Assembly (NCBI GenBank): GCA_030390025.1
Contig: JASTWF010000328.1
Coordinates: 496,001-539,888, forward strand
Source of the DNA: Squalus acanthias
Lineage: Eukaryota
DNA length: 43,888 bases
Direction: 5' to 3'
Every line of letters starts with the position of its first letter. Position 1 is the stretch's first letter. A program made the position numbers and the translations under genes. Below are positions 2,707-43,888 of the stretch, piece by piece. The notes beneath the pieces are model-generated. The model was not told where the DNA came from. It saw only the letters and a program-made list of their open reading frames with translations, and did no database searches.

Positions 2707-2838
2707 CAGAACATGGTCCTAATCACTCTCAGTTCTGAGTGGAGCTGCCCAGAATAAGGTTGTATGGCTTTGTTATCGGGTGAAATAGTCATGTCTGAAT
2801 GTCAATAAAGATCATTTATAACAGTTCTAGAGTCTCGA

Positions 2839-3522
2839 GTTAGATACAGAGAAAAGCTCCCTCTACACTGTCCCATCAAACACTCCCAGGGCAGTTACAG
2901 CACGGGTTAGATACAGAGTAAAGCTCCCTCTACACTGTCCCATCAAATACTCCCAGGGCAGGTACAGCACGGGTTAGATACAGAGTAAAGCTCCCTCTAC
3001 ACTGTCCCATCAAACACTCACAGGGCAGTTACAGCACGGGTTAGATACAGAGTAAAGCTCCCTATACACTGTCCCATCAAACACTCCCAGGGCAGTTACA
3101 GCACGGGTTAGATACGGAGTAATGCTTCCTCCACATTGTCCCATCAAACACTCCCAGGGTAGGTACAGCACGGGTTAGATACAGAGTAAAGCTCCATCTA
3201 CATTGTCCCATCAAACACTCCCAGTGCAGGTACAGCACGGGTTAGATACAGAGTAAAGCTCCCTCTACACTGTCCCATCAAACACTCCCAGGGCAGGTAC
3301 AGCATGGGTTAGATACAGAGTAAAGCTCCCCCTACACTGTCCCATCAAACACTCCCAGGGCAGGTACAGCACGGGTTAGATACAGAGTAAAGCTCCCCCT
3401 ACACTGTCCCATCAAACACTCCCAGGGCAGGTACAGCACGGGTTAGATACAGAGTAAAGCTCCCTCTACACTGTCCCATCAAACACTCCCAGGGCAGGTA
3501 CAGCACGGGTTAGATACAGAGT
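2839..3522. repeat. 67-bp tandem repeat, about 10.2 copies
   Basis: Unit gttagatacagagtaaagctccctctacactgtcccatcaaacactcccagggcaggtacagcacgg starts at 2839, 2906, 2973 ... 3509. Confidence 0.97.
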
Positions 3523-6445: not shown

Positions 6446-7070
6446 CTCAATGAGTCAATGATTGTCTCTCCTGGTCACTGGGAGCCTGAAGCCCCGCCCA
6501 CTCTCTGTTCCTGTACCAAGATGGCCGCGCATGCGCCGCGTTGTAGGTGGAATCGGTCTGTCTGTCCTCCACCAAGATGGCGGCGCGCAACCCGGGTCTG
6601 TCACCGAGAAAAAGGCTCACCGCTGCCGTCCGGAAGAACACAGACCGGGCCGCGGGATCTCATTCGGGCCTGAGGCCGTTCTACAGCTTTATAAACCCTG
6701 CGGCGCGGCCTACCCGCAGTTTATTAATCTCCCGCTCCCGCCGACCTGCAGCTCGCCCCGGCGACTGCGCGGGGTTTCTTTGTAAAGTCGGTGAGGGTCT
6801 CGTGACCCGGGCTCACGGCCTGATTGACGGGAGCTTCCGACCAATAGGGAGCGGGCGGGGCGGGGCTGGAGGAGCGAGCCGCCGGCGGGTCCTCCAACCA
6901 ATCGGGGAGCCCGAGGGGCGGGACTAGCGCCGGCTGATTGTCTGATCCGCGGGGCAGCGAGTTTCTCCAGTCCCTTGTTCAGGGCCCGGGGCCAGCGGAG
7001 GCTGTGGGCCTTTATTCCCCTTATTGGACACAAGGCTCTTTGTCTCACAACACACTGGCTCAGGTTTTAA
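6446..7070 (-). promoter_or_regulatory. Orphan ZNF promoter/first-exon cassette (modules A and B) with no adjacent finger array
   Basis: 6446-6760 is an inverted copy of 39280-39600; 6800-7070 is an inverted copy of 21198-21465; YY1 caagatggc x2, NRF1, CCAAT and GC boxes. Confidence 0.75.
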
Positions 7071-13150: not shown

Positions 13151-13930
13151 AGGTCGACAATGTCAACCGGATTCCCCTCATCCACCAACCGAACAACCTC
13201 GTCACAAAACTCCAGCTAGTTTGTAGACATGACCTTGTTTTCTGAAGCCGTGTTGAGTCTCTCCAACGGCCCTTTCCCTTTCCCCAGTGATCATAAACAG
13301 CATCTCTCAGGATCCCTTCAAGCATCTTCCCTGTGATCGAGGTCACACTGATGGGCCTGTAGTTCCCCGGCTCTGATCTGTCCCCGATTTGGAAAATGGG
13401 AGCGAGGTGAGCTGCCTTCCAATCTCAGGGAACAATCCCTGACTCTATGGAGCTGTTGATGATACGGGCAAGGGGCTCACAGAGCACCGTCCCATCTCTT
13501 TAAACACCCGTGAGTGGATATCATCTGGACCTGGAGCTCCAGCTAATTTCAGATTTCAGATTTTATCCAAGATGACAATCCCTTTCTATTTTAATATTTA
13601 TGATGTTATTGTCGACAGCACATCCCACAGCTGGAATCTGAGCATCATCCACAGGAGTGTAGACAGATGTGAAATAGTCATTTAACAGCTCTGTCACAGC
13701 CTGGGTATCTGTTTCAATCTGTCCTGAACTGTCTTTCAGTGACCCTAAACCATCTGTAATGGTCTTCTGACTCCTGACGTAGCTGGAAAAGCTTTTGCAA
13801 TTATTACCACAATTGTGCAGCATCTTCTTTTCCAAAGATCTCTGAGCTTCTCTAATGGCTGCTTTTGTCTCCCTCAATTCTGGGTGATATTTGTCCGTAT
13901 TCTCGTGTAAACTAAATTCATCTTGTTCCA
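13151..13930 (-). mobile_element. Old CR1 ORF2 fragment
   Basis: TSITGKMLEGILRD and ELLNDYFTSVYT in ORFs 13050..13346 and 13563..13931. Confidence 0.75.
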
Positions 13931-14918
13931 AACTGGGTTCAATGTGAGTCAGTTCGGCGAGTCAAGACATCATTTACCCCGAGACCTACGCTGGCCGGTG
14001 AAACCCCAGACAGTTCCTTCATAAGGATACCTCTGGTTCTCGCCATATATTTGTCAGGATACCGAAGCCCAGCTTTCTTACCGTCCACTCCTGGAGGCCC
14101 CACTCCCTGAGCCTACAACCTTCAGCAGGGTCAGTGGTGGAGTTCAACAGCAGGAGTGATCCCAGAGTAACTGTCGGGATCGCACCCCGTGGATGTTCCA
14201 GGTTGTGTATTTTTAGTTATCCTGGTTTCTATAACACATACATCAATAAAACAGGGAATTCCTGGAAACACGCTGCAGGTCCTTCTTTATCTGGAGATCA
14301 AATGTCTGTTGTATAATTATACCAGCAGTTAACAGGCTCCTGTGAACTCCTCCCTCTGCTATTTTAATGCAGACTTTAACAAATTTATTTTAAACGGGTT
14401 TATTTTAAATGGGTTAATGCCTGCCTTAAAATGGTAGACTCAGGACTGTCACACAAACACGTTAAATGATTACCAGTCATCTTTAGACTGGAATCTTAAA
14501 CCTGCCGTTTCACTTTCAGTCAGGAACAGATCGCAGTTTTGCACCAATCTCTGATTTGACAGCACGTTTCCAGCATTCACCGTTGTTCTTCCCGACTCGA
14601 AACACAGTTGTAAAGGAGCCTTCTATTCCGTGCCTAGGAGCTCTGAACCATGGAAGAGAGTGGCTGGGACACATTTCTCACAGGCCTCAAGATTAACCCG
14701 CATGGGAACTTTGCTGTCAGTGAAGAGAGACGAGAAATCCACAACAAGGTGTTTAAAACAAAACTGATTTATTTTACAAATATCCAGAATATTAAACTCC
14801 AGCCCAGTTACAGGGGTTATTAACGTCAGCAGAAACAAACCCCAACTATCAGAGTGAACATGGTTCAGTCTTGGATGTGATTAACAGCAGCAATAACAGC
14901 AGAATCCAACCCCTGCAA

Positions 14919-16094
14919 TCACTTGTGAACTCGCTGGTGCCTCAGCAGATCATTTCTGCTTTTAAAGCTCTTCTCACAGTCAGAACATTGAAAAGGTCTC
15001 TTATTGGTGTGAACAAGTTGGTGTGAAGTGAGGTGGGATGACTGAGTGAATCCCTTCCCACACACGGAGCAGGTGAACGGCCTCTCTCCAGTGTGAGTGC
15101 GCTGGTGTACAGTGAGTTCAGATGATCGCCTGAACCCAGTCCCGCAGTGAGAGCACCTGAACGGTCTCTCATCAGTGTGAACACGTTGATGGCACATCAG
15201 TTCCCCGGAACTTTTATAGCACTTCCCGCAGTCTGGGCATTGATAAGGTCTCTCATCAGTGTGAACTCGCTGGTGTATCAGCAGGTTGGATGACTGAGTG
15301 AATCCCTTCCCACACACGGAGCAGGTGAACGGCTTCTCTCCAGTGTGAGTGCGCTGGTGTACAGTGAGTTCAGATGATCGCCTGAACCCAGTCCCACAGT
15401 GAGAGCACCTGAACGGTCTCTCCCCAGTGTGAACACGTTGATGGCATGTCAGTTCCCCGGAACTTTTATAGCACTTCCCACAGTCCGGGCATTGATAAGG
15501 TCTCTCATCAGTGTGAACTCGCTGATGTATCAGCAGGTGGGATGAATTAGTGAATCCCTTCCCACACACGGAGCAGGTGAACGGCCTCTCCCCAGTGTGA
15601 GTGCATTGGTGTCGCAGCAGACCATTTGCGCTTTTAAAGCTCAGTTCACACTTAGAACATTTAAAAGGTCTCTTATCAGAGTGAACAAGTTGATGTCTCC
15701 GCAGGGTGGTAGAATGAGTGAATCCCTTCCCACACACGGAGCAGGTGAACGGTCTCTCCCCAGTGTGAATACGCCGGTGTGTCAGAAGGTGGGATAATTT
15801 AGTGAATCCTTTCCCACACATGGAGCAGGTGAATGGCCTCTCCCCAGTGTGACTGCGTTGATGAGTTTCCAGCTCGGATGGGCACCTGAATCCCTTCCCA
15901 CAGTCCCCACATTTCCACGGTTTCTCCGTGGTGCAGGTGTCCTTGTGTCTCTCCAGGTTGGACGATCGGTTGAAGCCTCGTCCACACACAGAACACGTGT
16001 ACGGTTTCTCCCCGCTGTGAATGGTGCGATGTTTTTTCAGGCTGTGTAACTGGTTAAAGCTCTTTCCACAGTCAGTGCACTGGAACACTCTCAC
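14919..16094 (-). CDS. C2H2 zinc-finger protein, 14 finger units (12 from the ACG at 15929); start uncertain
   Basis: Uninterrupted CxxC..HxxxH arrays with TGE(R/K)P linkers; 3-finger internal duplication; ACG instead of ATG at the MEKPW position. Confidence 0.75.
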
Positions 16095-16162
16095 TCAGAT
16101 GTGTGTGTCTCGATGCTTTTCCAGTCACACTGATGTTTGAAATTCTTTTTGAAAATGGTGAG

Positions 16163-16627: not shown

Positions 16628-19600
16628 CTCTTTTTGGTTTGACAAATCAAAATTTACTGTAAATCAATTAAAACTTTAAATGAAACTTAATAAATCAAAT
16701 CAAAATTTGGAAGTCCGGGGTGACGATGCACTCCAGCCCCCGCGGCGCCCACCGGTCGCGGAAAAACTCAAGCGTGCCGGCGGACACCGCGTGCTCCATC
16801 TCCAGGGCCACCCGGGCGCGAACATGGCCGCGGAAGAGAGGCAGGCAATCGGGCCGAACGACCCCCTCGACCGCCCGCTGCCTGGACCAATTAATGGCTT
16901 TCTTGGCCAGGCCCAGGAGCAGTCCTACGAGGAGGTCCTCCGACCTACCCGCTCCCCTCCGCACCGGGTGACCGTAGATCAGGAGCGTGGGGCTGAAGTG
17001 CAACCAGAAATTGAGGAGCAGCCCCTTCAAATAATGAAAGAGGGGCTGCAACCTCTCACACTCAATGTAAATGTGATAGACGGACTCCTCCAGGCCGCAG
17101 AAATGACAAGCAGCCTGGGAGTCCGTAAACCTACTTAAAATCCTATTGCACGGGACTGCTCCGTGCAACACCCTCCAGGCCAAGTCCCCAATAGAACAAG
17201 GGAAGACTCCCGCGTAGAGAGCCTTCCAATGGGGACCTTCGCCTCCGCCGGACGGCAGGATGGTACGCCAAGGCGTGTCCGGACGGCAGACGAAGATGGC
17301 AAAGTGGAGAGTGTGCAGGAGCAGCCCGTACAGGAAACGCCTCCGTGCGGATTGAAAGGGCACGGAGGGCATTTCTCCGAGAAGGCTCAAGTGGTGAGGC
17401 GGCGGCTCCCGAGGGAGGATTCGGGGCCGGGCGCCGATAAGGAATTCCGTCCGAACGGGGGTCAGTTCGGACGGGATTGCCCCACGTGCTTGAGCCTCCT
17501 CGACACACCTAGTGGAGACGGGGCCCAGTGCCACTTTTAGCGACTCGATGGCTTTGACCGCGAGCCGGACGTTGACCCAGGACATGCGCCTCGCCAACTC
17601 CTCCGGCGCCATCCAGCCCGCTCCTCCGCCATCGAGCAGGTCCCCGACTCTGGTCACCTTACCGGGCACAGCCCTGCCCTCCGCCAGCCAGCCGAACCCG
17701 CGGTCGTGGAGGTGCGGATTCCTGAACAGCGGCTCCCGAAGGACGGCCGCCGCTCCTGACGGGGGAGAACTGCGCTCGGAGGCGACGCTGTTCCAAACCC
17801 ATAGCAGTTCCTGGTAGAAGACAGGCAGCTCCCGCAGGCTGGCACGCGTGCCACCCACTCTCACAAACAGGAGCTGCGTGTCGTAATTGAGGCCGTGCAG
17901 CTGGCGGAAGAAATACGTCGCCAGCGCACGCCACCTAGGAGGATTCTCCACGTACAGGTATCTCTGCAGCGTCTGAAGATGGAAAGTCGCCGCCTGGGTG
18001 CGAAGGCACACCAGCGCCTGACCGCCCTCCCTAAGCGGGAGACTCAAAACCGCGGCAGAGACCCAGTGCTTCCTTTTGTCCCAGAAGAAGTTGACGAGCT
18101 TCTTCTGCATCTTGGCGACAAACGCAGGGGGAGGGATCAAAGTGACCAACCGGTACCACAACATGGCGGCCACCAGCTGGTTTATGACCAGCGCTCGACC
18201 CCTGTAGGACAACACTCGGAGCAGTCCTGTCCAGCGCCCTAGGCGAGCGGTGACTTTGGCCTCCAGCTCTTGCCAGTTCGCCGGCCAGGCGTCCTCGGCC
18301 GGGCTGAGGTAGACTCCCAGGTAGAGGAGGTGCGTGGTGCTCCAGGCGAAAGGCCCAAACTCCTCCGGCAGGGAGTCCACCCGCCATGGGCCCACCAGGA
18401 GTCCAGAACATTTCTCCCAGTTGATCTTGGTGGAGGATGCGTCCGAGTAAATCTGCTGGCATTCTCGCATCCTCCGCAAGTCGACGGGATCCGTGACCGC
18501 GAGGAGCACGTCATCGGCGTAAGCCGAGAGGACCACCTCCACGCCCGGCCCTTGCAGAGCCAGTCCCGTCAACCTCTTCCGCAAGAGGCGCAGGAAAGGC
18601 TCCACGCAAACGGCGTATAACTGACCGGACATGGGGCATCCCTGACGCACCCCCCTCCCGAAGCGAAGGGGCGCCGTCAAAGACCCGTTAACTTTAATCA
18701 GACACTCCGCGGCGGCGTACAGAAGTCGGATCCGGGCGACGAAATGCGTCCCGAACCCGAATGCGCGCAGAGTCCCGAAAAAATACTCGTGATCCACCCT
18801 GTCGAACGCCTTCTCCTGATCCACGGAAAGGAAGGCGACCGACAGACCAGCCCTCTGGGAATGGTGGACCAGGTCCCGGACCAGATGGATGTTATCGTGG
18901 ATACTCCGGCCCGGGACCATGTAGGACTGGTCGGGGTGGATCATGCGGGCCAGCACGGTGCCAAGGCGAGCAGACATAGCCCTGGCGAAAATTTTGTAGT
19001 CCGTGCTGAGGAGGGAGACCGGGCGCCAGTTCTTAAGTAGGCGGAGATCGCCCTTCTTGGGCAGCAGGACGATGACCGCCCTGCGCCAAGAGAGGGGCAT
19101 CTCCCCGGTCGCCAGACTTTCCCCCAGCACCCGCGCGTAGTCGTCCCCCAAGACGTCCCAGAACGCCCTGTGGAACTCCACGGTCAGCCCGTCCAGCCCC
19201 GGGGACTTGCCCCTCGAGAGCTGGCGCAGGGCGCCGGTCAGCTCCGCCAGGCTTAGCGGAGCTTCTAAATTCTCGGCGCCCTCCGGGCCGACCTTCGGCA
19301 GGTCCTCCCACAAAACTCTGCGCGCATCCTCGCTGGACGGATCCGAAGAGAACAGAGCCCCGTAATAGGCCCGGGCCTCCGCGCTGATGCCCTCCGGATC
19401 CGAGACCAGAGATCCGTCGTCGGCCAGCAGCCCCAAGAGCTGCTTACGGACCCCCCGTCTTTTTTCCAGCGAGTAGAAGAAGGGGGAGCCGCGGTCCAGG
19501 TCCCGCAGGAACTGGATCCGCGACCTCACGTACGCGCCTCGGGACCCGACCAGCTGCAGGTCCTTCAGCGCGCCCTTCTTCTCTTCGTACACCTTCCGCA

Positions 19601-20430
19601 GGGCCGGGTCCTCGACGACCTGACCGAGACGGGACTCCAGGTCGAGCACTTCTTTCTCCAATCGCCCGACCCGGGCCTCCCGCCTCTTGGTCGACCCCTT
19701 CGCGTACTCCTGACAGAAGACGCGGACGTGAGCCTTGCCCACATCCCACCATAGCCTCAAGGAGGGGAAGCCTCCCCGCTTCCTTCTCCAGTCGGCCCAG
19801 AACCGGCGAAACGAATCCCGGAACCGCGCGTCCTCCAGCAGCAGGTTGTTAAAATGCCAGTACGCGGACCCCCCCCGCGCGCGCAGCGGAGCGAGCTCCG
19901 CCCACACCAGGTGGTGGTCCGTGCACGGCACCGGCCGCATGGAAGCCGCCGGAACACAGGAGACGTACGCCCGGGAAATGTAAAGGCGGTCGATTCTGGA
20001 CCTTCCTCCTCCAGACCTCACGCTCGTGAAGGCGCTGGAGTCGGGATGGAGATTTCGCCAGACGTCCACCAAGTCGAAGGACCCGACCAGGTCCCGCAAC
20101 TTCTCCATCGCCGCTGGGCTTCGCGGGGGACCCGACCGGTCCCGCGCCTCGAGGGTACAATTGAAATCCCCCCCGAGGATGACGCACTCGCCCACGTCGA
20201 TGGAGCCCAGAAGAGCGGACACTTCTCCGAAGAAGCGCACTTGCTGCGCACCGGTCCGGGGGGCGTACACGTTCACTAAATGGAGCGGCACGCCTCCCAG
20301 GCGAACAGTGACCTGGAGCAAGCGGCCCGGCACGTGCTCCTTGACCCTCATGATCTCCGGCTGAAAATGCGGGGCCAGCAAGACAGCCACCCCGCAGGAA
20401 TTGTTAGAGAGGTGACTCATGCTGACCCCT
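16628..20430 (-). mobile_element. Tx1-clade (L1 group) non-LTR retrotransposon, 5'-truncated, ORF2 otherwise intact
   Basis: ORF 16695..20453 has APE endonuclease motifs (GGDFN, SRIDR, TDH), RT (DQEKAFD, RQGCP, YADD) and a C-terminal C-x2-C...H-x4-C; TSD cctggtgttg at 16618-16627 and 20431-20440. Confidence 0.93.
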
Positions 20431-20496
20431 CCTGGTGTTGTGCGACCTCTCAATTTTGTCCACCCCAGTCCAACAGCGGCATCTCTGCATCATGAC

Positions 20497-22995: not shown

Positions 22996-23961
22996 ATGGA
23001 AGGAGAAAGCAGCGATCGCAGCGATGACAAACCGCACACGTGTTCGGTGTGTGGACGCGGATTCAGCCGATCGCCTGACCTGGTGAGACACGTGCACCGT
23101 CACACCGGGGAGAAACCGGGTAAAGGTGGGGACGGTGGGAAGGGATTCAGTTCCCCGTCTGCAATAGAAGTTCAACGGCGCAGTCACACCAGGGACAGTC
23201 CGTTCACCTGCTCCGTGTGTGGAAGGGGATTTGTTTGTTCATCCTACCTGCAAACACACCAGCGAGTTCACACTGACGAGAGACCGTTTCAATGTTCTGA
23301 CTGTGGGAAGAGCTTTAAAAGCTCCGGGGATCTGAAGGGACACCAGCGAGTTCACACTGATGAGCGACCCTTTAAATGTTCTGACTGTGGGAAAAGCTTT
23401 AAAAGCTCCCGGGATCTGAAGGGACACCAACACCTACACACTGGGGAGAGGCCGTTCACCTGCTCCGTGTGTGGGAAGGGATTCACTCAGTCATCCGCCC
23501 TCCTGTCACACCAGCTTGTTCACACTGGGGAGAGGCCGTTCACCTGCTCTGTGTGTGGAATGGGATTCACTCAGTCATCCACCCTCCTGACACACCAGCG
23601 AGTTCACACTGACGAGAGACCCTTTAAATGTTCTGACTGTGGGAAGAGCTTTAAAAGCTCCGGGGATCTGAAGAGACACCAACACCTACACACTGGGGAG
23701 AGGCCGTTCACCTGCTCTGTGTGTGGGAAGGGATTTGCTCGGTCCTCCAACCTGCTGGAACATCAGCGAGTTCACACTGGGGAGAGACCGTTCACCTGCT
23801 CTGTGTGTGGGAAGGGATTCGCTCGGTCCTCCAACCTGCTGGTACATCAGCGAGTTCACACTGACGAGAGACCCTTTAAATGTTCTGACTGTGGGAAGAG
23901 CTTTAAAAGCTCGAAGAACCTTAAGGGACACCAGTGTCTTCACACTGATCATAGAATCTAA
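22996..23961 (+). CDS. C2H2 zinc-finger protein, 10 intact plus 1 degenerate finger; stop supplied by a CR1 insertion
   Basis: Acceptor at 22884-22886; ATG at 22996 (cacATGG); last codons HRI* come from the CR1 tail. Confidence 0.8.
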
Positions 23962-24336
23962 CAGCACAGAAGGAGGTGATTCGGCCCATCGTGTCTGTGC
24001 CGGCTCTTTGAAAGAACTATCCAATTTAGTCTCAAACCCCAGCTTTATCCCCAGAACTCTGCAAACTAGTCCTCTTCAAGTACACGTCCAATCACCGTTT
24101 GAAAGTTCCTGTGGAACCTGATTCCAGCATCCTTTCAGATGGTGCGTTCCAGATCTTAACAACCCTCTGTGTGAAAACAATTCTCCTCATTCACCTCTAG
24201 TTCTTTTAGCAACTATTTTAAATCTGTGACCTTTGGTTACCGACCCACTTGCCAGAGTGAACAGTTTCTCCCTACTTGCTCGATCAAAACCCCTCATCAT
24301 TTTGAACCCCTCTATTAGGTCTCCTCTTAACCTTCT
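23949..24336 (-). mobile_element. CR1 3' fragment
   Basis: [19 protein letters not shown]...GHRFKI; catagaat tail. Confidence 0.85.
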
Positions 24337-26400
24337 GAGCTCACTGTACACCAGCGCACTCACACTGGGGAGAGGCCGTTCACTGAGCTCACTGTACACC
24401 AGCGCACTCACACTGGGGAGAGGCCGTTCACTGAGCTCACTGTACACCAGCGAGTTCACACTGGGGAGAGGCCGTTCACTGAGCTCACTGTACACCAGCG
24501 AGTTCACACTGGGGAGAGGCCGTTCACTGAGCTCACTGTACACCAGCGCACTCACACTGGGGAGAGGCCGTTCACTGAGCTCACTGTACACCAGCGCACT
24601 CACACTGGGGAGAGGCCGTTCACTGAGCTCACTGTACACCAGCGCACTCACACTGGGGAGAGGACCGTTCACTGAGCTCACTGTACACCAGCGAGTTCAC
24701 ACTGGGGAGAGGCCGTTCACTGAGCTCACTGTACACCAGCGAGTTCACACTGGGGAGAGACCGTTCACTGAGCTCACTGTACACCAGCGCACTCACACTG
24801 GGGAGAGACCGTTCACTGAGCTCACTGTACACCAGCGAGTTCACACTGGGGAGAGGCCGTTCACTGAGCTCACTGTACACCAGCGCACTCACACTGGGGA
24901 GAGGCCGTTCACTGAGCTCACTGTACACCAGCGAGTTCACACTGGGGAGAGGCCGTTCACTGAGCTCACTGTACACCAGCGCACTCACACTGGGGAGAGG
25001 CCGTTCACTGAGCTCACTGTACACCAGCGAGTTCACACTGGGGAGAGGCCGTTCACTGAGCTCACTGTACACCAGCGAGTTCACACTGGGGAGAGGCCGT
25101 TCACTGAGCTCACTGTACACCAGCGCATTGACACTGGGGAGAGGCCGTTCACTGAGCTCACTGTACACCAGCAAGTTCACACTGGGGAGAGGCCGTTCAC
25201 GGAGCTCACTGTACACCAGCGCACTCACACTGGGGAGAGGCCGTTCACTGAGCTCACTGTACACCAGCGCACTCACACTGGGGAGAGACCTTTCACTGAG
25301 CTCACTGTACACCAGCGAGTTCACACTGGGGAGTGGCCGTTCACTGAGCTCACTGTACACCAGCGAGTTCACACTGGGGAGAGGCCGTTCACTGAGCTCA
25401 CTGTACACCAGCGAGTTCACACTGGGGAGAGGCCATTCACTGAGCTCACTGTACACCAGCGAGTTCACACTGGGGAGAGACCGTTCACTGAGCTCACTGT
25501 ACACCAGTGAGTTCACACTGGCGAGAGGCCGTTCACTGAGCTCACTGTACACCAGCGCACTCAAACTGGGGAGAGACCGTTCACTGAGCTCACTGTACAC
25601 CAGCGAGTTCACACTGGGGAGAGACCGTTCACTGAGCTCACTGTAAACCAGCGCACTCACACTGGGGAGAGGCCGTTTACTGAGCTCACTGTACACCAGC
25701 GAGTTCACACTGGGGAGAGACCGTTCACTGAGCTCACTGTACACCAGCAAGTTCACACTGGGGAGAGACCGTTCACTGAGCTCACTGTACACCAGCGAGT
25801 TCACACTGGGGAGAGGCCGTTCACTGAGCTCACTGTACACCAGCGCACTCACACTGGGGAGAGGCCGTTCACTGAGCTCACTGTACACCAGCGAGTTCAC
25901 ACTGGGGAGAGGCTGTTCACTGAGCTCACTGTACACCAGTGCATTCACACTGGGGAGAGGCCGTTCACTGAGCTCACTGTACACCAGCGCACTCACACTG
26001 GGGAGAAGCCGTTCACTGAGCTCACTGTACACCAGCGCACTCACACTGGGGAGAGGCCGTTCACTGAGCTCACTGTACACCAGCGAGTTCACACTGGGGA
26101 GAGGCCGTTCACTGAGCTCACTGTACACCAGCGAGTTCACACTGGGGAGAGGCCGTTCACTAAGCTCACTGTACACCAGCGAGTTCACACTGGGGAGAGG
26201 CTGTTCACTGAGCTCACTGTACACCAGCGCACTCACACTGGGGAGAGACCGTTCACTGAGCTCACTGTACACCAGCGAGTTCACACTGGGGAGAGGCCGT
26301 TCACTGAGCTCACTGTACACCAGCGCACTCACACTGGGGAGAGGCCGTTCACTGAGCTCACTGTACACCAGCACACTCACACTGGGGAGAGGCCGTTCAC
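24337..26400 (+). repeat. 48-bp zinc-finger-derived minisatellite, 43 copies
   Basis: Unit gagctcactgtacaccagcg(agtt/cact)cacactggggagaggccgttcact = ELTVHQR(V/T)HTGERPFT; first unit 24337, last 26354 (42x48+1). Confidence 0.98.
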
Positions 26401-26974: not shown

Positions 26975-28280
26975 CTGCAGGGGTTGGATTCTGCTGTTGT
27001 TGCTGTTGTTAATCACATCCAGGACTGAACCATGTTCATTCTGACAGTTGGGATTTGTTTCTGCTGATGTTAATAACTCCTGTAACTGGGCTGGAGTTGA
27101 TTTTCTGGATAGATGTCAAATAAATCAGCTTTGCTTTGAACAAATTGTTGTAGATTTTTTTCTTTCCCACCTGAGTGTTTAGCATCACCTGGCTGGAGCT
27201 CAGAAAGGACAATCTGGGGGAGGATCGTACGGCGGGAACAGAACTTCAGCCTGGACACAGTCCTTCAGGGCCACACTGAGAGGGGCAAACGGCACTTTGG
27301 TCTTTCTCGTCTCTCTTCACTGACAGCAAAGTCCCGTGTGGGTTAATCTCGAGGCCTGTAAGAAATGTGTCCCAGCCGCTCTCTTCCATGGTTCAGAGCT
27401 CCTAGGCACGGAACAGAAGGCTCCTTTACAACTGTGTTTAGAGTCAGGAAGAACAACGGTGAATGCTGGAAACGTGCTGTCAAATCAGAGATTGGTGTCA
27501 AACTGCGATCTGTTCCTGACTGAAAGTGAAACAGGTTTAAGTTTCCAGTCTAAATATGACTGATACTTATTCTACGAATATTTAACGTGTTTGTGTGACA
27601 GTCCTGAGTCTACCATTTTAAGGCAGGCGTTAACTCATTTAAAATAAACCCATTTAAAATAAATTGGTTAAATTCCGCATTAAAATAGCAGAGGGAGGAG
27701 TTCACAGGAGCCTGTTAACTGCTGGTACAATTATACAACAGACATTTGATCTCCAGATAAAGAAGGACCTGCAGCGTGTTTCCAGGAATTCCCTGTTTTA
27801 TTGATGTGTGTGTGTTAGACACCAGGATAACTAAAAATACACGACCCGGAACATCCACGGGGTGCGTTCCCGACAGTTACTCTGGGATCACTCCCACTGT
27901 GGAACTCCACCACTGACCCTGCTGAAGGTTGTAGGCTCGGGGAGTGGGGCCTCCAGGAGTGGACTGTAAGAAAGCTGGGTTCCGGTATCCTGACAAATAT
28001 ATGCTGAGGAACCAGAGGAATCCTTACTGAGGAACCGTGTGGGGTTTTACCTGCCTGCATAGGTCGAGGGGCGAATGATGCCTGACTCGCCGAAATTTGA
28101 ACCCAGTTTGTAACAAGATGAATTGAGTTTACAGAAGAATAGGGACAAATATCACCCACAATTGAGGGAGACAAAAGCAGCCATTAGAGAAGCTCAGAGG
28201 GATTTGGAAATGAAGATGCTGCACAATTGTGGTAATATTAGTAAAAATCTTTTCCAGCTGTGTCAGGAGTCAGAGGACAT
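26975..28280 (+). repeat. Inverted segmental duplication of about 13760-14918
   Basis: Colinear reverse-complement match over 3' UTR, spacer and old CR1 piece; about 145 bp extra at 27160-27300. Confidence 0.9.
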
Positions 28281-29405: not shown

Positions 29406-29422
29406 AAGTATGTAAAATCCAG

Positions 29423-29593
29423 AAGATGACCCAGGTCAGGCCGTGTGGAGTGAAGGGCCAGGCAGCAGAATGGATGGAAAGATGGCTACAAAACAGAAAT
29501 CAGAGGGTTGGAGTTAAGGGAAGTTTGTTGCGATCTTTCCATCCATTCTGCTGCCTGACCTTTGACTCCACACGGCCTGACCGTGGTCATCTT
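29423..29593. repeat. CR1-derived inverted repeat (about 70-bp arms, about 30-nt loop)
   Basis: ggtcaggccgtgtggagt...ggcagcagaatggatggaaagat versus atctttccatccattctgctgcc...actccacacggcctgacc. Confidence 0.9.
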
Positions 29594-30019
29594 GTAGACC
29601 GTACATACTGCAGACACAGTGCACCAGTGGTGGAGGGGGTGGATATTGAGTCCTGTGGCAGGGGCGCTGATGAAGTGGATTTCTCTGTCCGTGAGTTTTG
29701 AGGCATCGCTAGTGGCGTTTTTCACCACTTTCCACCTTTAAAATAAAATCTTATTGCCAGTTTATTAAAGCCTCTCGGGTAGGTCACACAAAAAAAATGA
29801 GGCCTCGTAAGTTTCCCTCAGAATGACAGGCCTGAACTCGAGTTAGAAAACATTTAGTAATTAAACCAGACTGGGCGGGGCCTGAGGTGTGAGTTAGTAA
29901 CGGAAAATTGGCGGCCAGCGTACTTCACACCAGGGCTGAGGACCCGGGGACTCGGGTTTCTGTATCATTTATTGATTAATTTAGTTTATTGCCCAATCTC
30001 AATCAGACTGGTGGGTCAT

Positions 30020-30580
30020 CTTGCCGTCTGGCGGAGGCGAGGTTCCCCAATGGAGGCTCTCTACGCGGGGGTCCTTCCCTGCACCATTGGGGATCTGGGG
30101 TGGAGACTGTTGCAAGGAGCTGTCGTGTGCAACAGTTTAAGCTCCTTTCCGGACTCCAAGGCCAGATGTGTTTTTTGCGGCCTAGAGGAGTCCACGGGCC
30201 GTGTATATATTCAGTGTGAGAGGTTGCAGCCCCTGTATAGTTACCTGAAGGGGCTGCTCCTCAACTCTTGGTTACACTTTAGCCCCACGCTCCTAATCTT
30301 TGCCGCCCGGTGCGGAGGGGGGTGGGTAAGTCGGAGGATCTTCTCCTAGACCTGCTCTTGGGCCTGGCGAAAACAGCAATTTGTAGGCCCAGGATGGGCG
30401 GGGCCCATGGGGGGGTCACTCTGGCTGCCTGCCTCTCTCCCGTGGTCTTGTCCCTGCCCGGGTGGCCCTGGAGAGGGAGCAGGCGGTGTCCACCGGTTCA
30501 CTTGATACCTTCCTCGACCGGTGGGCACGGAAGGTATCAAGAGGCGATAATCGATCCTCACAATCACATTGTGATTTAAT
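30020..30580 (+). mobile_element. Degenerate Tx1-clade 3' fragment
   Basis: ALYAGVLPCTIGDLGWRLLQGAV...CVFCGLEES...CERLQPL...LHFSPTLLI matches the C-terminus of the 16695..20453 ORF. Confidence 0.88.
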
Positions 30581-31948: not shown

Positions 31949-32791
31949 TCACTTGTGAACTCGCTGGTGTCTCAGCAGGTTGGATGACTGATTGAATCCC
32001 TTCCCACACACGGAGCAGGTGAACGGCCTCTCCCCAGTGTGAACTCGCTGGTGTGCCAACAGGTTGGATGACTGAGTGAATCCCTTCCCACACACGGAGC
32101 AGGTGAATGGCATCTCCCCAGTGTGAACTCGCTGGTGTGTCAGCAGGTTGGATGAATGAGTGAATCCCTTCCCACACACGGAGCAGGTGAATAGCATCTC
32201 CCCAGTGTGAACTCGCTGGTGTGTCAGCAGCTGGGATGACCGAATGAATCCTTTCCCACATACGGAGCAGTTGAACGGCCTCTCCCCAGTGTGAATGCAC
32301 TGGTGTATCAGCAGGTTGGATGAATGAGTGAATCCCTTCCCACACACAGGGCAGGTGAATGGCCTCTCCCCAGTGTGAATGCGCTGGTGTCTCAGAAGGT
32401 CGGAGGAATTAGTGAATCCCTTCTCACACATGGGGCAGGTGAACGGCCTCTCTGCAGTGTGAATGTGCTGGTGTATCAGCAGGGTGGATGAATTAGTGAA
32501 TCCCTTCCCACACACAGGGCAGGTGAACGGCCTCTCCCCAGTGTGATTGCGCTGGTGTGCAATGAGGTGAGATGACTGCCTGAATCTCTTCCCGCAGTGA
32601 GAGCAACTGAACGGTCTCTCCTCAGTGTGAACTCGCTGGTGTGTCAGAAGGTGGGATGACTGACTGAATCCCTTCCCACACTCGGAGCAGGTGAACGGCC
32701 TCTCCCCGGTGTGACTGCGTCGATGAATTTCCAGCCGGGACGGGGAGCTGAATCCCTTCCCACAGTCCCCACATTCCCACGGTTTCTCCAT
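31949..32791 (-). CDS. C2H2 zinc-finger protein, 10 fingers from caccATGG (frame open upstream to the TGA at 32987-32989)
   Basis: [14 protein letters not shown]...HQRVHK*; strong Kozak context; no internal stops. Confidence 0.85.
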
Positions 32792-33164
32792 GGTGCAGGT
32801 ATCCTTGTGTCTCTCCAGGTTGGACGATCGGTTGAAGCCTCGTCCACACACAGAACACGTGTACGGTTTCTCCCCGCTGTGAATGGTGTGATGTTTCTTC
32901 AGGCTGTGTAACTGGTTAAAGCTCTTTCCACAGTCAGTGCACTGGAACACTCTCACTCGGGTGTGTGTGTCTCGGTGCTTTTCCAGTCACACTGATGTTT
33001 GAAATCTTTTCCCACAGACAGAACAGACAAACATTTCTCCTTCCACATTCAAAGGCCGATGATATTCCCTGTAAAAGTAGTTTACAAAGGTCATCACTGT
33101 AAGTTCAGGATTAAAATGCAGAACAGATAATTCTAGTTTCTATGGAACATTCTCTCCTCTCTTA

Positions 33165-34414: not shown

Positions 34415-34970
34415 TAACCCCAAAGCTGTAAATCCCCGTCCCACACACTCTCCCTCCTCCCTGTGCTGAAATCCAAACCCATCGCACCATCTCCAACATT
34501 TCTTTCCTCCACTCCCAGTTTTCTCCCTCCCTCTACTCTGGTTGGGTTCAGTTCCACACCCGCTGTGTGCAGAGTGAGAATAAAATCAATGAGTCAATGA
34601 TTGTCTCTCCTGGTCACTGGGACCCTGAAGCCCCGCCCACTCTTGTTCCTGGCCAAGATGGCCGCGCATGCGCCGTGATCCCGCCCTGTCCAAGATGGCG
34701 GCCAGTGACCCCGCTGACCCGGCCGGCCGGGCCTGTCACCGCGGGGCAAACACGGGGCCTGTGGGCTCTTATTCGGGGCCTGAGGCCTACACCGGGTGTT
34801 TATGAAGCTTTCCAGCCCAGCCGCTGGTCCAATTCCTCCCCGAGCCCACAATCTCCTACCGTCCTCCTGGAAGCGTGTCTTCCTCATCAGCCCAAAGTCT
34901 CCACTGGCACTGCGCATGCTCAGAGCACTGCCCTGTCTTGCGCCTGCGCACTGGGCTCCTGTAGTCATTG
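34415..34970 (-). promoter_or_regulatory. Promoter/leader of the 31949-32791 ZNF gene
   Basis: 34415-34700 is an inverted homolog of about 39460-39770; YY1, NRF1 and SBS-like gactacaggagcccag motifs. Confidence 0.72.
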
Positions 34971-39239: not shown

Positions 39240-39867
39240 CAGGAGCCCAGCGCGCAGGCGCGGGACAGGCTCTGCGCGGTCGCCGGCGGAGCTGCAGGTC
39301 GGCGGGAGCGGGGTCGGGAGATTAATAAACTGCGGGTAGGCCGCGCCGCAGGGTTTATAAAGTTGGAGAACGGCCTCTGGCTCGAATGAGATCCAGCGGC
39401 CCGGTCTGTGTTCACCGGACGGCAGCGGTGAGGCTTTTTCTCGGTGACAGGCCCGGGTTACGCGCCGCCATCTTGGTGGAGGAAAGACGGACCGGTTCCA
39501 CCTGCAGCAGGACGCATGCGCGGCCATCTTGGTACAGGAACAGTGAGTGGGCGGGGCTTCAGGGTCCCAGTGACCAGGAGAGACAATCATTGACTCATTG
39601 ATTTTATTCTCACTCTGCACACAGCGGGTGTGGAACTGAACCCAACCAGAGTAGAGGGAGGGAGAAAACTGGGAGTGGAGGAAAGAAATGTTGGAGATGG
39701 TGCGATGGGTTTGGATTTCAGCACAGGGAGGAGGGAGAGTGTGTGGGACGGGGATTTACAGCTTTGGGGAACAAGAGAGGAAAGAATGTTCCATAGAAAC
39801 TAGAATTGTCTGTTCTGAATTTCTATCCTGTACTTACAGTGATGACTTTTGTAAACTCCTTTTACAG
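39240..39867 (+). promoter_or_regulatory. ZNF promoter and 5' leader (module B, acceptors at about 39624 and 39867)
   Basis: tttataaa, gccatcttgg x2 (YY1), gcatgcgc, GC box; ttttattctcactctgcacacag and ccttttacag acceptors. Confidence 0.72.
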
Positions 39868-39988
39868 GGTTTTAGGAGGGGAAGATTTACAGACGGGAAA
39901 CTCAAACCAAACATCACCTCAACATCTGACAGAGTCACTCTGTTCATCAGGACCCGAATATCATCGGCCTTTGAATGTGGAAGGAGAA

Positions 39989-40780
39989 ATGTTTGTCTGT
40001 TCTGTCTGTGGGAAAAGATTTCAAACATCAGTGTGACTGGAAAAGCACCGAGACACACACACCCGAGTGAGAGTGTTCCAGTGCACTGACTGTGGAAAGA
40101 GCTTTAACCAGTTACACAGCCTGAAAAAACATCGCACCGTTCACAGCGGGGAGAAACCGTACACTTGTTCTGTGTGTGGACGAGGCTTCAACTGATCGTC
40201 CAACCTGGAGAGACACAAGGACACCCGCACCACGGAGAAACCCTGGAAATGTGAGGACTGTGGGAAGGGATTCAATTACCCATCCCAGCTGGAAACTCAT
40301 AGACGCAGTCACACCGGGGAGAGGCCGTTCACCTGCTCCGTGTGTGGGAAGGGATTCACTCACTCATCTGCCCTCCGATCACACCAGCGAGTTCACAGTG
40401 ATGAGAGACCTTTTAAATGCGCTGATTGTGGGAACTGCTTTAAAAGTTCTGAGGGACTAATTCAACATCAGCGAGTTCATACTGACGAGAGACCGTTCAG
40501 TTGCTCTCACTGTGGGAAGAGGTTCAGGCATTCATGCAACCTCATTGTACACCAGCGAGTTCACACTGGGGAGAGGCCGTTCACCTGCTCCGTGTGTGGG
40601 AAGGGATTCATTGGTTCTTCCCAACATCTGAGACACCAGCGAGTTCACACTGGGGAGAGGCCATTCACCTGCTCCATGTGTGGGAAGGGATTCACTCAGT
40701 CATCCAACCTGCTGACACACCAGCGAGTTCACGATCGACTGCAGGGGTTGGATGCTGCTGTTAATCACATCCAGGACTGA
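39989..40780 (+). pseudogene. C2H2 ZNF gene or pseudogene: leader fingers with TGA at 40034 and 40193, then 6 fingers from the ACG at 40232
   Basis: Same leader as the 16.0 and 32.9 kb genes; terminal TGA replaced by CGA at 40736. Confidence 0.7.
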
Positions 40781-42470: not shown

Positions 42471-43888
42471 CAACCCCCCTCACCCCAACTCCTCTTTCAC
42501 CCCAACTCTCCAACCCCCCTCACCCCAACTCCTCTTTCACCCCTACTCTCCAACCCCCCTCACCCCAACTCCTCTTTCACCCCTACTCTCCAACCCCCCT
42601 CACCCCAACTCCTCTTTCACCCCTACTCTCCAACCCCCCTCACCCCAACTCCTCTTTCACCCCTACTCTCCAACCCCCTCACCCCAACTCCTCTTTCACC
42701 CCTACTCTCCAACCCCCCTCACCCCAACTCCTCTTTCACCCCTACTCTCCAACCCCCTCACCCCAACTCCTCTTTCACCCCTACTCTCCAACCCCCTCAC
42801 CCCAACTCCTCTTTCACCCCTACTCTCCAACCCCCCTCACCCCAACTCCTCTTTCACCCCTACTCTCCAACCCCCCTCACCCCAACTCCTCTTTCACCCC
42901 TACTCTCCAACCCCCTCACCCCAACTCCTCTTTCACCCCTACTCTCCAACCCCCCTCACCCCAACTCCTCTTTCACCCCTACTCTCCAACCCCCCTCACC
43001 CCAACTCCTCTTTCACCCCTACTCTCCAACCCCCTCACCCCAACTCCTCTTTCACCCCTACTCTCCAACCCCCCTCACCCCAACTCCTCTTTCACCCCTA
43101 CTCTCCAACCCCCCTCACCCCAACTCCTCTTTCACCCCTACTCTCCAACCCCCCTCACCCCAACTCCTCTTTCACCCCTACTCTCCAACCCCCTCACCCC
43201 AACTCCTCTTTCACCCCTACTCTCCAACCCCCCTCACCCCAACTCCTCTTTCACCCCTACTCTCCAACCCCCCTCACCCCAACTCCTCTTTCACCCCTAC
43301 TCTCCAACCCCCCTCACCCCAACTCCTCTTTCACCCCTACTCTCCAACCCCCCTCACCCCAACTCCTCTTTCACCCCTACTCTCCAACCCCCCTCACCCC
43401 AACTCCTCTTTCACCCCTACTCTCCAACCCCCCTCACCCCAACTCCTCTTTCACCCCTACTCTCCAACCCCCCTCACCCCAACTCCTCTTTCACCCCTAC
43501 TCTCCAACCCCCTCACCCCAACTCCTCTTTCACCCCTACTCTCCAACCCCCTCACCCCAACTCCTCTTTCACCCCTACTCTCCAACCCCCCTCACCCCAA
43601 CTCCTCTTTCACCCCTACTCTCCAACCCCCCTCACCCCAACTCCTCTTTCACCCCTACTCTCCAACCCCCTCACCCCAACTCCTCTTTCACCCCTACTCT
43701 CCAACCCCCTCACCCCAACTCCTCTTTCACCCCTACTCTCCAACCCCCCTCACCCCAACTCCTCTTTCACCCCTACTCTCCAACCCCCCTCACCCCAACT
43801 CCTCTTTCACCCCTACTCTCCAACCCCCTCACCCCAACTCCTCTTTCACCCCTACTCTCCAACCCCCCTCACCCCAACTCCTCTTTCA
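42471..43888. repeat. 39/40-bp G-free tandem array, more than 35 copies, runs off the window
   Basis: Unit caacccccctcaccccaactcctctttcacccctactctc; variation almost only in C5/C6 run length. Confidence 0.98.

Follow-up and report, generated by a model that had tools for sequence, protein, structure and literature searches.

An inherited stop codon in the first finger of a shark C2H2 zinc-finger gene subfamily and possible non-AUG starts of its main open reading frame

Results

The analysed window, a stretch of 43,888 nt from Squalus acanthias (contig JASTWF010000328.1, positions 496,001 to 539,888 of the forward strand), contains at least seven genes or gene remnants of the C2H2 zinc-finger type, which are interspersed with LINE fragments. 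A comparison with protein databases placed the closest named proteins in sharks and one ray; a search of representative proteins, whose best 150 of 57,712 matches were long multi-finger proteins, served for mining only. With its clustered paralogs, tandem fingers and variable recognition helices, the window is a tandem birth-and-death cluster of C2H2 zinc-finger genes, and broken paralogs lie at 4.6 kb and 36 kb. Pattern scans of metagenome contigs and viral contigs returned no loci.

Three of the genes, named here after their approximate position, are treated in detail. The main open reading frame (ORF) of the 33 kb copy (31949-32791, minus strand) starts with an AUG in strong context, encodes 280 amino acids with 10 fingers and ends in AAG-TGA-CTG. 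The main ORF of the 40 kb copy (40232-40780, plus strand; 182 amino acids, 6 intact fingers) and that of the 16 kb copy (14919-15929, minus strand; 336 amino acids, 12 intact fingers) both begin with ACG. All three copies have a CpG-rich 5' module in common, the putative promoter, which lies at 34418-34882 (minus strand) in the 33 kb copy and is 99.2% identical over 243 nt between the 33 kb and 40 kb copies. A fourth promoter-like CpG-rich module is found at 6447-6770 (minus strand; 91% identity to 39274-39601), with no zinc-finger exon directly behind it.

A putative splice acceptor, for which splicing is predicted from the sequence, lies at 33069-33100 (minus strand) in the 33 kb copy and is followed there by an in-frame deletion of 87 nt corresponding to 39869-39955 of the 40 kb copy, in which the zinc-finger exon starts with 39868-39988 (plus strand). 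That this deletion at the exon start (33067-33069, minus strand) keeps the zinc-finger frame has a chance of one in three, or may hint at an upstream exon with coding sequence. The alignment of the 16 kb copy with the 40 kb copy stops near 39631 and restarts near 40017, a deletion which takes out the putative acceptor, both upstream AUGs described below and the first half of finger 1. At the other end of the 40 kb gene the usual terminal TGA is replaced by CGA (40736-40738, plus strand), which extends the C-terminus for a short distance into sequence that the paralogs have as 3' UTR.

All three copies carry the triplets GTG TGA CTG, with the TGA located at 32987-32989 (minus strand) in the 33 kb copy, at 40034-40036 (plus strand) in the 40 kb copy and at 16125-16127 (minus strand) in the 16 kb copy. 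A sequence check validated an earlier note on this DNA in that the stop is in frame in all three and sits at helix position +3 of finger 1, and in that it ends a 15-codon ORF in frame with the main ORF in the 33 kb and 40 kb copies; the absence of the first half of finger 1 from the 16 kb copy, also described there, is apparent from the alignment to the 40 kb copy. Since the copies are 96-100% identical around the stop and 95-100% across the leader, i.e. the stretch in front of the main ORF, the shared stop represents one inherited event and neither chance nor three separate events. The earlier note had offered as one reading an ancestral CGA to TGA change that was amplified. An amplified nonsense change is indeed supported by our data, but CGA as its origin is unproven, because none of the proteins compared has an in-frame Arg at this position and the sole in-frame alternative is a Trp in a single protein (P0010, Scyliorhinus), while the sister gene type lacks this finger. 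Three further proteins (P0011, P0016 and P0112) cross the position in a shifted frame and are equally compatible with TGA and CGA.

This sister type is represented in the window by a gene at 23 kb (22996-23961, plus strand), which has no stop in its leader and lacks the stretch of fingers 1-2. It aligns to 39846-39989 of the 40 kb copy and then to 40134-40732, so that 39990-40133 are missing. Its Met (22996), at which P0235, P0244 and P0285 begin, among several such database proteins, corresponds to a GTG at 39977-39979 in the 40 kb copy. From this comparison it follows that the leader type differs from the sister type by the loss of an AUG at this site and by the presence of the stop-bearing stretch.

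We compared the leader with the main ORFs for signs of protein constraint. Over 213 nt of leader the three copies differ at 10 sites, comprising four synonymous, four missense and two nonsense changes, which agree with neutrality in a model that includes CpG hypermutation (p = 0.26 and 0.28). In-frame CGA codons have become TGA at two of six copy-sites in the leader versus none of 19 in the main ORFs, which thus retain all of them (Fisher p = 0.05); with two more genes added, the latter count is none of 30 (p = 0.024). The density of variable sites also differs, with 10 of 213 in the leader versus 14 of 84 in finger 4 (p = 0.0015), and nine of the latter fall into the 36-nt helix slice. Variable helix residues number five in finger 4 versus zero, two and one in fingers 1-3, where the slice of finger 2 starts one codon late. 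A search with residues 1-56 gave eight matches, only one of which was a shark protein with the leader, and this one was frameshifted. However, the putative promoter (99.2%) and the 3' UTR (95.5%) are about as similar between copies as the leader is, with the intron end less so (90.8%), and 5' conversion or recent duplication could therefore explain the contrast with finger 4 without selection. In addition, the leader changes outside CpG sites are mostly synonymous (four of five to six), which is a count made by eye, post hoc and on tiny numbers, and the region of the upstream ORFs is identical over 81 nt in two copies, as a selected element would be as well. Taken together, the pattern of changes argues that the leader fingers are very likely free of protein constraint.

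Sequencing runs extended the comparison beyond the window. The 431-nt leader was found in 24 runs from 10 organisms and 10 studies, at 0.52-0.70 of 44 sampled words. Four of these runs, each from a different organism, were aligned to 39470-40340 at 85% likeness: X1 and X5, which are RNA-like by guess, as are the labels of all 18 RNA-like runs, and X19 and X21, which are large runs of unstated kind and are referred to as DNA-like. Allele shares from these runs are contig shares weighted by depth; they are biased towards the common allele and do not represent copy counts. Of 112 substitutions 40 are listed, and their lowest top share is 28%, from which the others can be estimated to lie below about 28%, the ranking rule being unstated. 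Among those listed there is none at 40034-40036 or 40193-40195 in any of the four runs, whereas differences peculiar to the 40 kb copy appear at 94-99% (40165), and we conclude that both TGAs are the depth majority in all four. As for finger 4, helix codons vary in the runs (40275, 40278 and 40286), and the listed substitutions spare its Cys, His, Phe and Leu codons. At the putative acceptor the depth changes by a step of 119-fold and 60-fold in X1 and X5 versus 2.5-fold and 2.4-fold in X19 and X21, which is a weak hint of expression.

The second of these TGAs, at 40193-40195 (plus strand) in finger 3 of the 40 kb copy, reads CGA in the other two copies; the 16 kb copy instead has a further TGA at 16095-16097 (minus strand). 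Both extra stops, noted earlier as private to their copies, are present as described, but the private status of the one at 40193 is rejected by the four runs and by three of the four informative shark proteins, which imply TGA. P0016 (Carcharodon) ends at this codon, and P0112 and P0163 (Heterodontus) imply a T there in a shifted frame, while P0067 (Heterodontus) has Arg; the count omits P0161, with a Trp at a probable model junction, and P0010 and P0011, in which the codon is not determinable. Hence, this stop is a common feature of the subfamily.

We considered whether the shared UGA might be read through in a programmed manner, adding three N-terminal fingers to the protein. UGA followed by C is a leaky stop context, in the earlier note the leakiest of eukaryotes; the frame of the 33 kb copy stays open over 345 codons past the stop, and P0010 has its Trp precisely there. 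However, helix position +4 is a conserved Leu, whose codon starts with C in 53 of the 55 fingers of the window (CTG in 35), and any stop at +3 consequently reads UGA-C, so that the C is forced by the finger and not a signal. Three normal ORF ends in the window are likewise AAG-TGA, two of them followed by CTG. Moreover, the context in all three copies is UGA-CUG-G and not the high-readthrough motif UGA-CUA-G, for which a basal readthrough of 0.9% to a few percent is given in PMC12233894. A second stop closes the frame in two of three copies and in the depth majority of all four runs, the leader changes fit neutrality, and the 100 nt from the stop onwards show no stimulatory fold (z = -0.75), a feature of some readthrough cases only; across six 100-nt stretches, z ranged from -1.42 to +1.28. 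We therefore regard readthrough as very improbable and conclude with high confidence that the stop is inherited and not read through. A selenocysteine UGA was rejected as well, since the window gave no Rfam match and thus no listed SECIS element, and since helix +3 is never Cys in the 55 fingers.

Removal of the stop-bearing stretch by splicing is, to our assessment, extremely improbable. The RNA-like runs do contain joints recorded as skipping 40034 (39981-40103, 39992-40103, 39875-39998 and 39954-40134), but each joint skipping it reaches a depth of at most 562, whereas the leader in X1 has a depth of about 400,000. GT..AG ends are absent from all of the 15 joints listed out of 60, and two also occur in DNA-like runs and hence exist as genomic deletions.

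Two short upstream ORFs (uORFs) occupy the start of the leader. uORF2 (32987-33034, minus strand, in the 33 kb copy and 39989-40036, plus strand, in the 40 kb copy) consists of 15 codons plus the shared TGA and is in frame with the main ORF; its AUG in the 33 kb copy has G at -3 and T at +4. uORF1, which was absent from the earlier note, has 31 codons, is out of frame and overlaps uORF2; it spans 32953-33048 (minus strand) in the 33 kb copy, where its AUG at 33048 lies in weak context (T at -3 and +4), and starts at 39975 in the 40 kb copy. AUG and stop of uORF2 are kept in two of the three copies, which are identical over these 48 nt, with no variant listed in four organisms. Behind the shared stop follows a spacer of 195 nt (32792-32986, minus strand, in the 33 kb copy), comprising the rest of finger 1, finger 2 and finger 3, which has no AUG in any of the three copies and is open in frame in the 33 kb copy, with CGA codons at 32957-32959 and 32828-32830. 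The stops of uORF2 and uORF1 are thus located 195 and 161 nt before the main ORF. This anatomy fits the proposal, made earlier, of a uORF with re-initiation at MEKPW, in so far as uORFs of 15 and 31 codons precede AUG-free stretches of 195 and 161 nt. It fits less well that an AUG is present at MEKPW in only one of three copies and that both upstream AUGs are lost from the 16 kb copy, whose main ORF is intact.

The uORFs, the position of the stop, the AUG-free spacer and a weak ACG start could also be kept by selection, as a throttle that keeps the dose of every one of these very numerous zinc-finger proteins low, which may restrict collisions of ribosomes on tandem fingers. Between two copies there is no difference in the 81 nt around the uORF versus seven in the next 195 nt, but this excess has a p-value of 0.11. 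None of the 40 of 112 substitutions listed falls into 39977-40132 and no indel of at least 5% occurs in the zinc-finger exon in four runs from four organisms; however, 39990-40133 are missing from the sister type, and fewer divergent contigs are therefore to be expected there. The change that removes the AUG of uORF1 makes up 0.3% and 1.8% of the depth in the RNA-like runs versus 20.7% and 55.4% in the DNA-like ones, but these runs represent different organisms and the same gap is seen at other CpG sites. Translation of tandem C2H2 fingers is reported to cause collisions and decay in zebrafish (PMC11620358), and that low initiation is beneficial by avoiding such collisions is speculation on our part. 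The 16 kb copy lacks both upstream AUGs and yet keeps 12 intact fingers. We consider a selected throttle unlikely.

Where the main ORF starts differs between the copies. A restart at MEKPW applies to the 33 kb copy alone, with its ATG at 32789-32791 (minus strand), as its place is taken in the other two by an ACG, in the same strong context, at 40232-40234 (plus strand) and 15927-15929 (minus strand). A CUG that is in frame in all three copies (40205-40207, plus strand, in the 40 kb copy) lies 27 nt before this site and represents another candidate start. Both ACG and CUG have A at -3 and G at +4, with no in-frame AUG before conserved coding sequence. The first in-frame AUG of the 40 kb copy is codon 149, ahead of which lie five intact fingers and five of five CGA codons, and that of the 16 kb copy, in weak context, is codon 37, with all 12 fingers intact. 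That only one of three copies has an AUG at MEKPW, yet finger 4 is intact and diversifying, is a new observation of this work. Shark proteins starting at MEKPW do exist (P0021, P0057, P0201 and P0253).

In the runs, the AUG allele accounts for 7.5% (X1), 9.1% (X5), 34.7% (X19) and 45.4% (X21) of the depth, with ACG at most of the depth in X1 and X5. It is much commoner by contig count than by depth, with 22, 6, 56 and 53 contigs versus 55, 27, 75 and 67 at the nearly fixed position 40243. Two other CpG transitions show the same pattern across the runs in this order (3.3, 4.6, 13.5 and 32.0%; 9.0, 5.7, 24.1 and 49.8%), from which the AUG looks like a deamination product of an ancestral ACG and not like a favoured state. 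This parallel, expected from plain deamination, would also suit a mostly non-coding subfamily, in which only the minority of copies bearing an AUG makes the full protein, while ACG copies, although transcribed, yield no product or short ones started at later AUGs and make up a pool that is switched on by CpG decay. The broken paralogs of the window point in the same direction. However, five fingers and five CGA codons are preserved in the 40 kb ACG copy in front of its first AUG in frame, and all fingers of the 16 kb ACG copy are intact despite the 18-24% by which both ACG copies differ from their paralogs over the first 252 nt, which makes the non-coding alternative quite unlikely.

Non-AUG initiation in the ACG copies is plausible, and its actual use is possible, although we would not presume it. 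A GCC-rich context, which the main-ORF ACG site matches only in part, allows ACG to initiate well (PMC13754004), and re-initiation at near-cognate codons is described as weaker (PMC10275272). Translation of the main ORF from finger 4 in the intact copies appears likely.

Discussion

The stops, their sharing, the neutral-looking changes of the leader and the intact and diversifying main ORFs are observed, and from them we infer each translation step of the explanation that we favour as somewhat probable. According to this explanation, a nonsense change would have arisen once, long ago, in finger 1 of a founder gene and would have been copied while the subfamily multiplied in sharks. Fingers 1-3 would no longer be protein, but would serve as 5' UTR within the zinc-finger exon, with the two short uORFs, and the second stop, a CpG-type change in finger 3, could have spread freely behind the first. 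Ribosomes would end at the UGA, and the main ORF, from finger 4 on, would be reached by leaky scanning past the two mediocre upstream AUGs or, alternatively, by re-initiation after the uORF of 15 or 31 codons. In copies whose T-T-E-K-P-W site has changed to M, the AUG would be the start; in the others the ACG or the nearby CUG would probably serve as a weak one.

A broader reading is more tentative, and we regard it as rather doubtful: the main zinc-finger subfamily of sharks may be built on a gene from which the AUG-led N-terminus has been lost, with three former fingers as a uORF-bearing leader and with most transcribed members starting at ACG or CUG in a modified linker, in which case the ACG to AUG transition at a CpG site would act as a family-wide dose switch, perhaps linked to what the translation of tandem fingers costs. 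If so, this single transition would raise any member to full output. If the non-AUG reading is true, a very large family of vertebrate transcription factors relies on near-cognate initiation, AUG-based counts of shark genes are wrong, and the family offers a natural series for the setting of zinc-finger protein dose by uORFs and start codons.

Like the tetrapod KRAB-ZFPs and the cyprinid FiNZ-ZNFs described in PMC10547256, the shark genes are clustered paralogs with a tandem-finger exon behind an intron, and they share with these expansions the diversifying recognition helices and the broken copies beside intact ones; in contrast to them, the amplified shark form has a stop in its first finger. 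Sharks are absent from the main text of that paper, and KRAB is reported as lost in cartilaginous fishes (PMC8455134). A Pfam scan of the zinc-finger exon frame of three proteins found no N-terminal effector or repressor domain in that frame.

The leader resembles re-initiation scenarios 1 and 3 of PMC10275272, in that the stop follows the AUG by no more than about 30 codons and an in-frame start lies downstream at a usable distance. The distance to the start that is cited there for preproinsulin is 79-140 nt versus 161-195 nt in the shark leader, and unlike the cases described, the leader is fixed in a large subfamily, with a downstream codon that is often ACG. With the readthrough genes MDH1, AQP4 and LDHB, which carry UGA-CUA-G (PMC12233894), the shark stop shares the CU behind UGA, but it differs in the third base and in its place close to the 5' end, and most shark copies close the frame a second time behind it. 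The ACG site resembles that of the ACG-initiated CLK2 (PMC13754004) in its purine at -3, G at +4 and non-G at +5. Unlike CLK2 as presented there, it has no full GCC-rich NAT1 motif, and the shark ACG would start the main product at a site where other paralogs have an AUG. A search of a literature collection with few subscription papers brought up no work on the stop-bearing leader.

For annotation, a stop that is present across paralogs can mimic recoding although it is inherited, and the models P0051, P0057, P0112 and P0161 are patched or chimeric at the leader. More generally, the public shark models P0051, P0057, P0097, P0112 and P0161 appear to chain neighbouring genes and to patch the leader with short exons or shifted frames.

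Several further features of the window were recorded. Directly upstream of the putative promoter of the 16 kb gene lies an unbroken ORF of 1264 codons (16695-20489, minus strand), which resembles the endonuclease-reverse transcriptase of a Tx1-type LINE, and a decayed relative is found near 29861-30526. The region 24331-26400 is an array of units of about 48 nt, each corresponding to a collapsed finger remnant of 16 codons, with long in-frame open stretches that continue into the zinc-finger ORF at 26 kb; either a true expansion or an artefact of the assembly may account for it. An inverted duplication of about 980 nt (13762-14737 versus 27303-28278, 90% identity) is located downstream of the genes at 16 kb and 26 kb. 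Tandem arrays occur at 2836-3522 (period of about 67 nt) and 42471-43888 (period of about 80 nt), the latter strongly C-skewed, and an imperfect palindrome of about 200 nt lies at 29407-29609 (77% reverse self-match).
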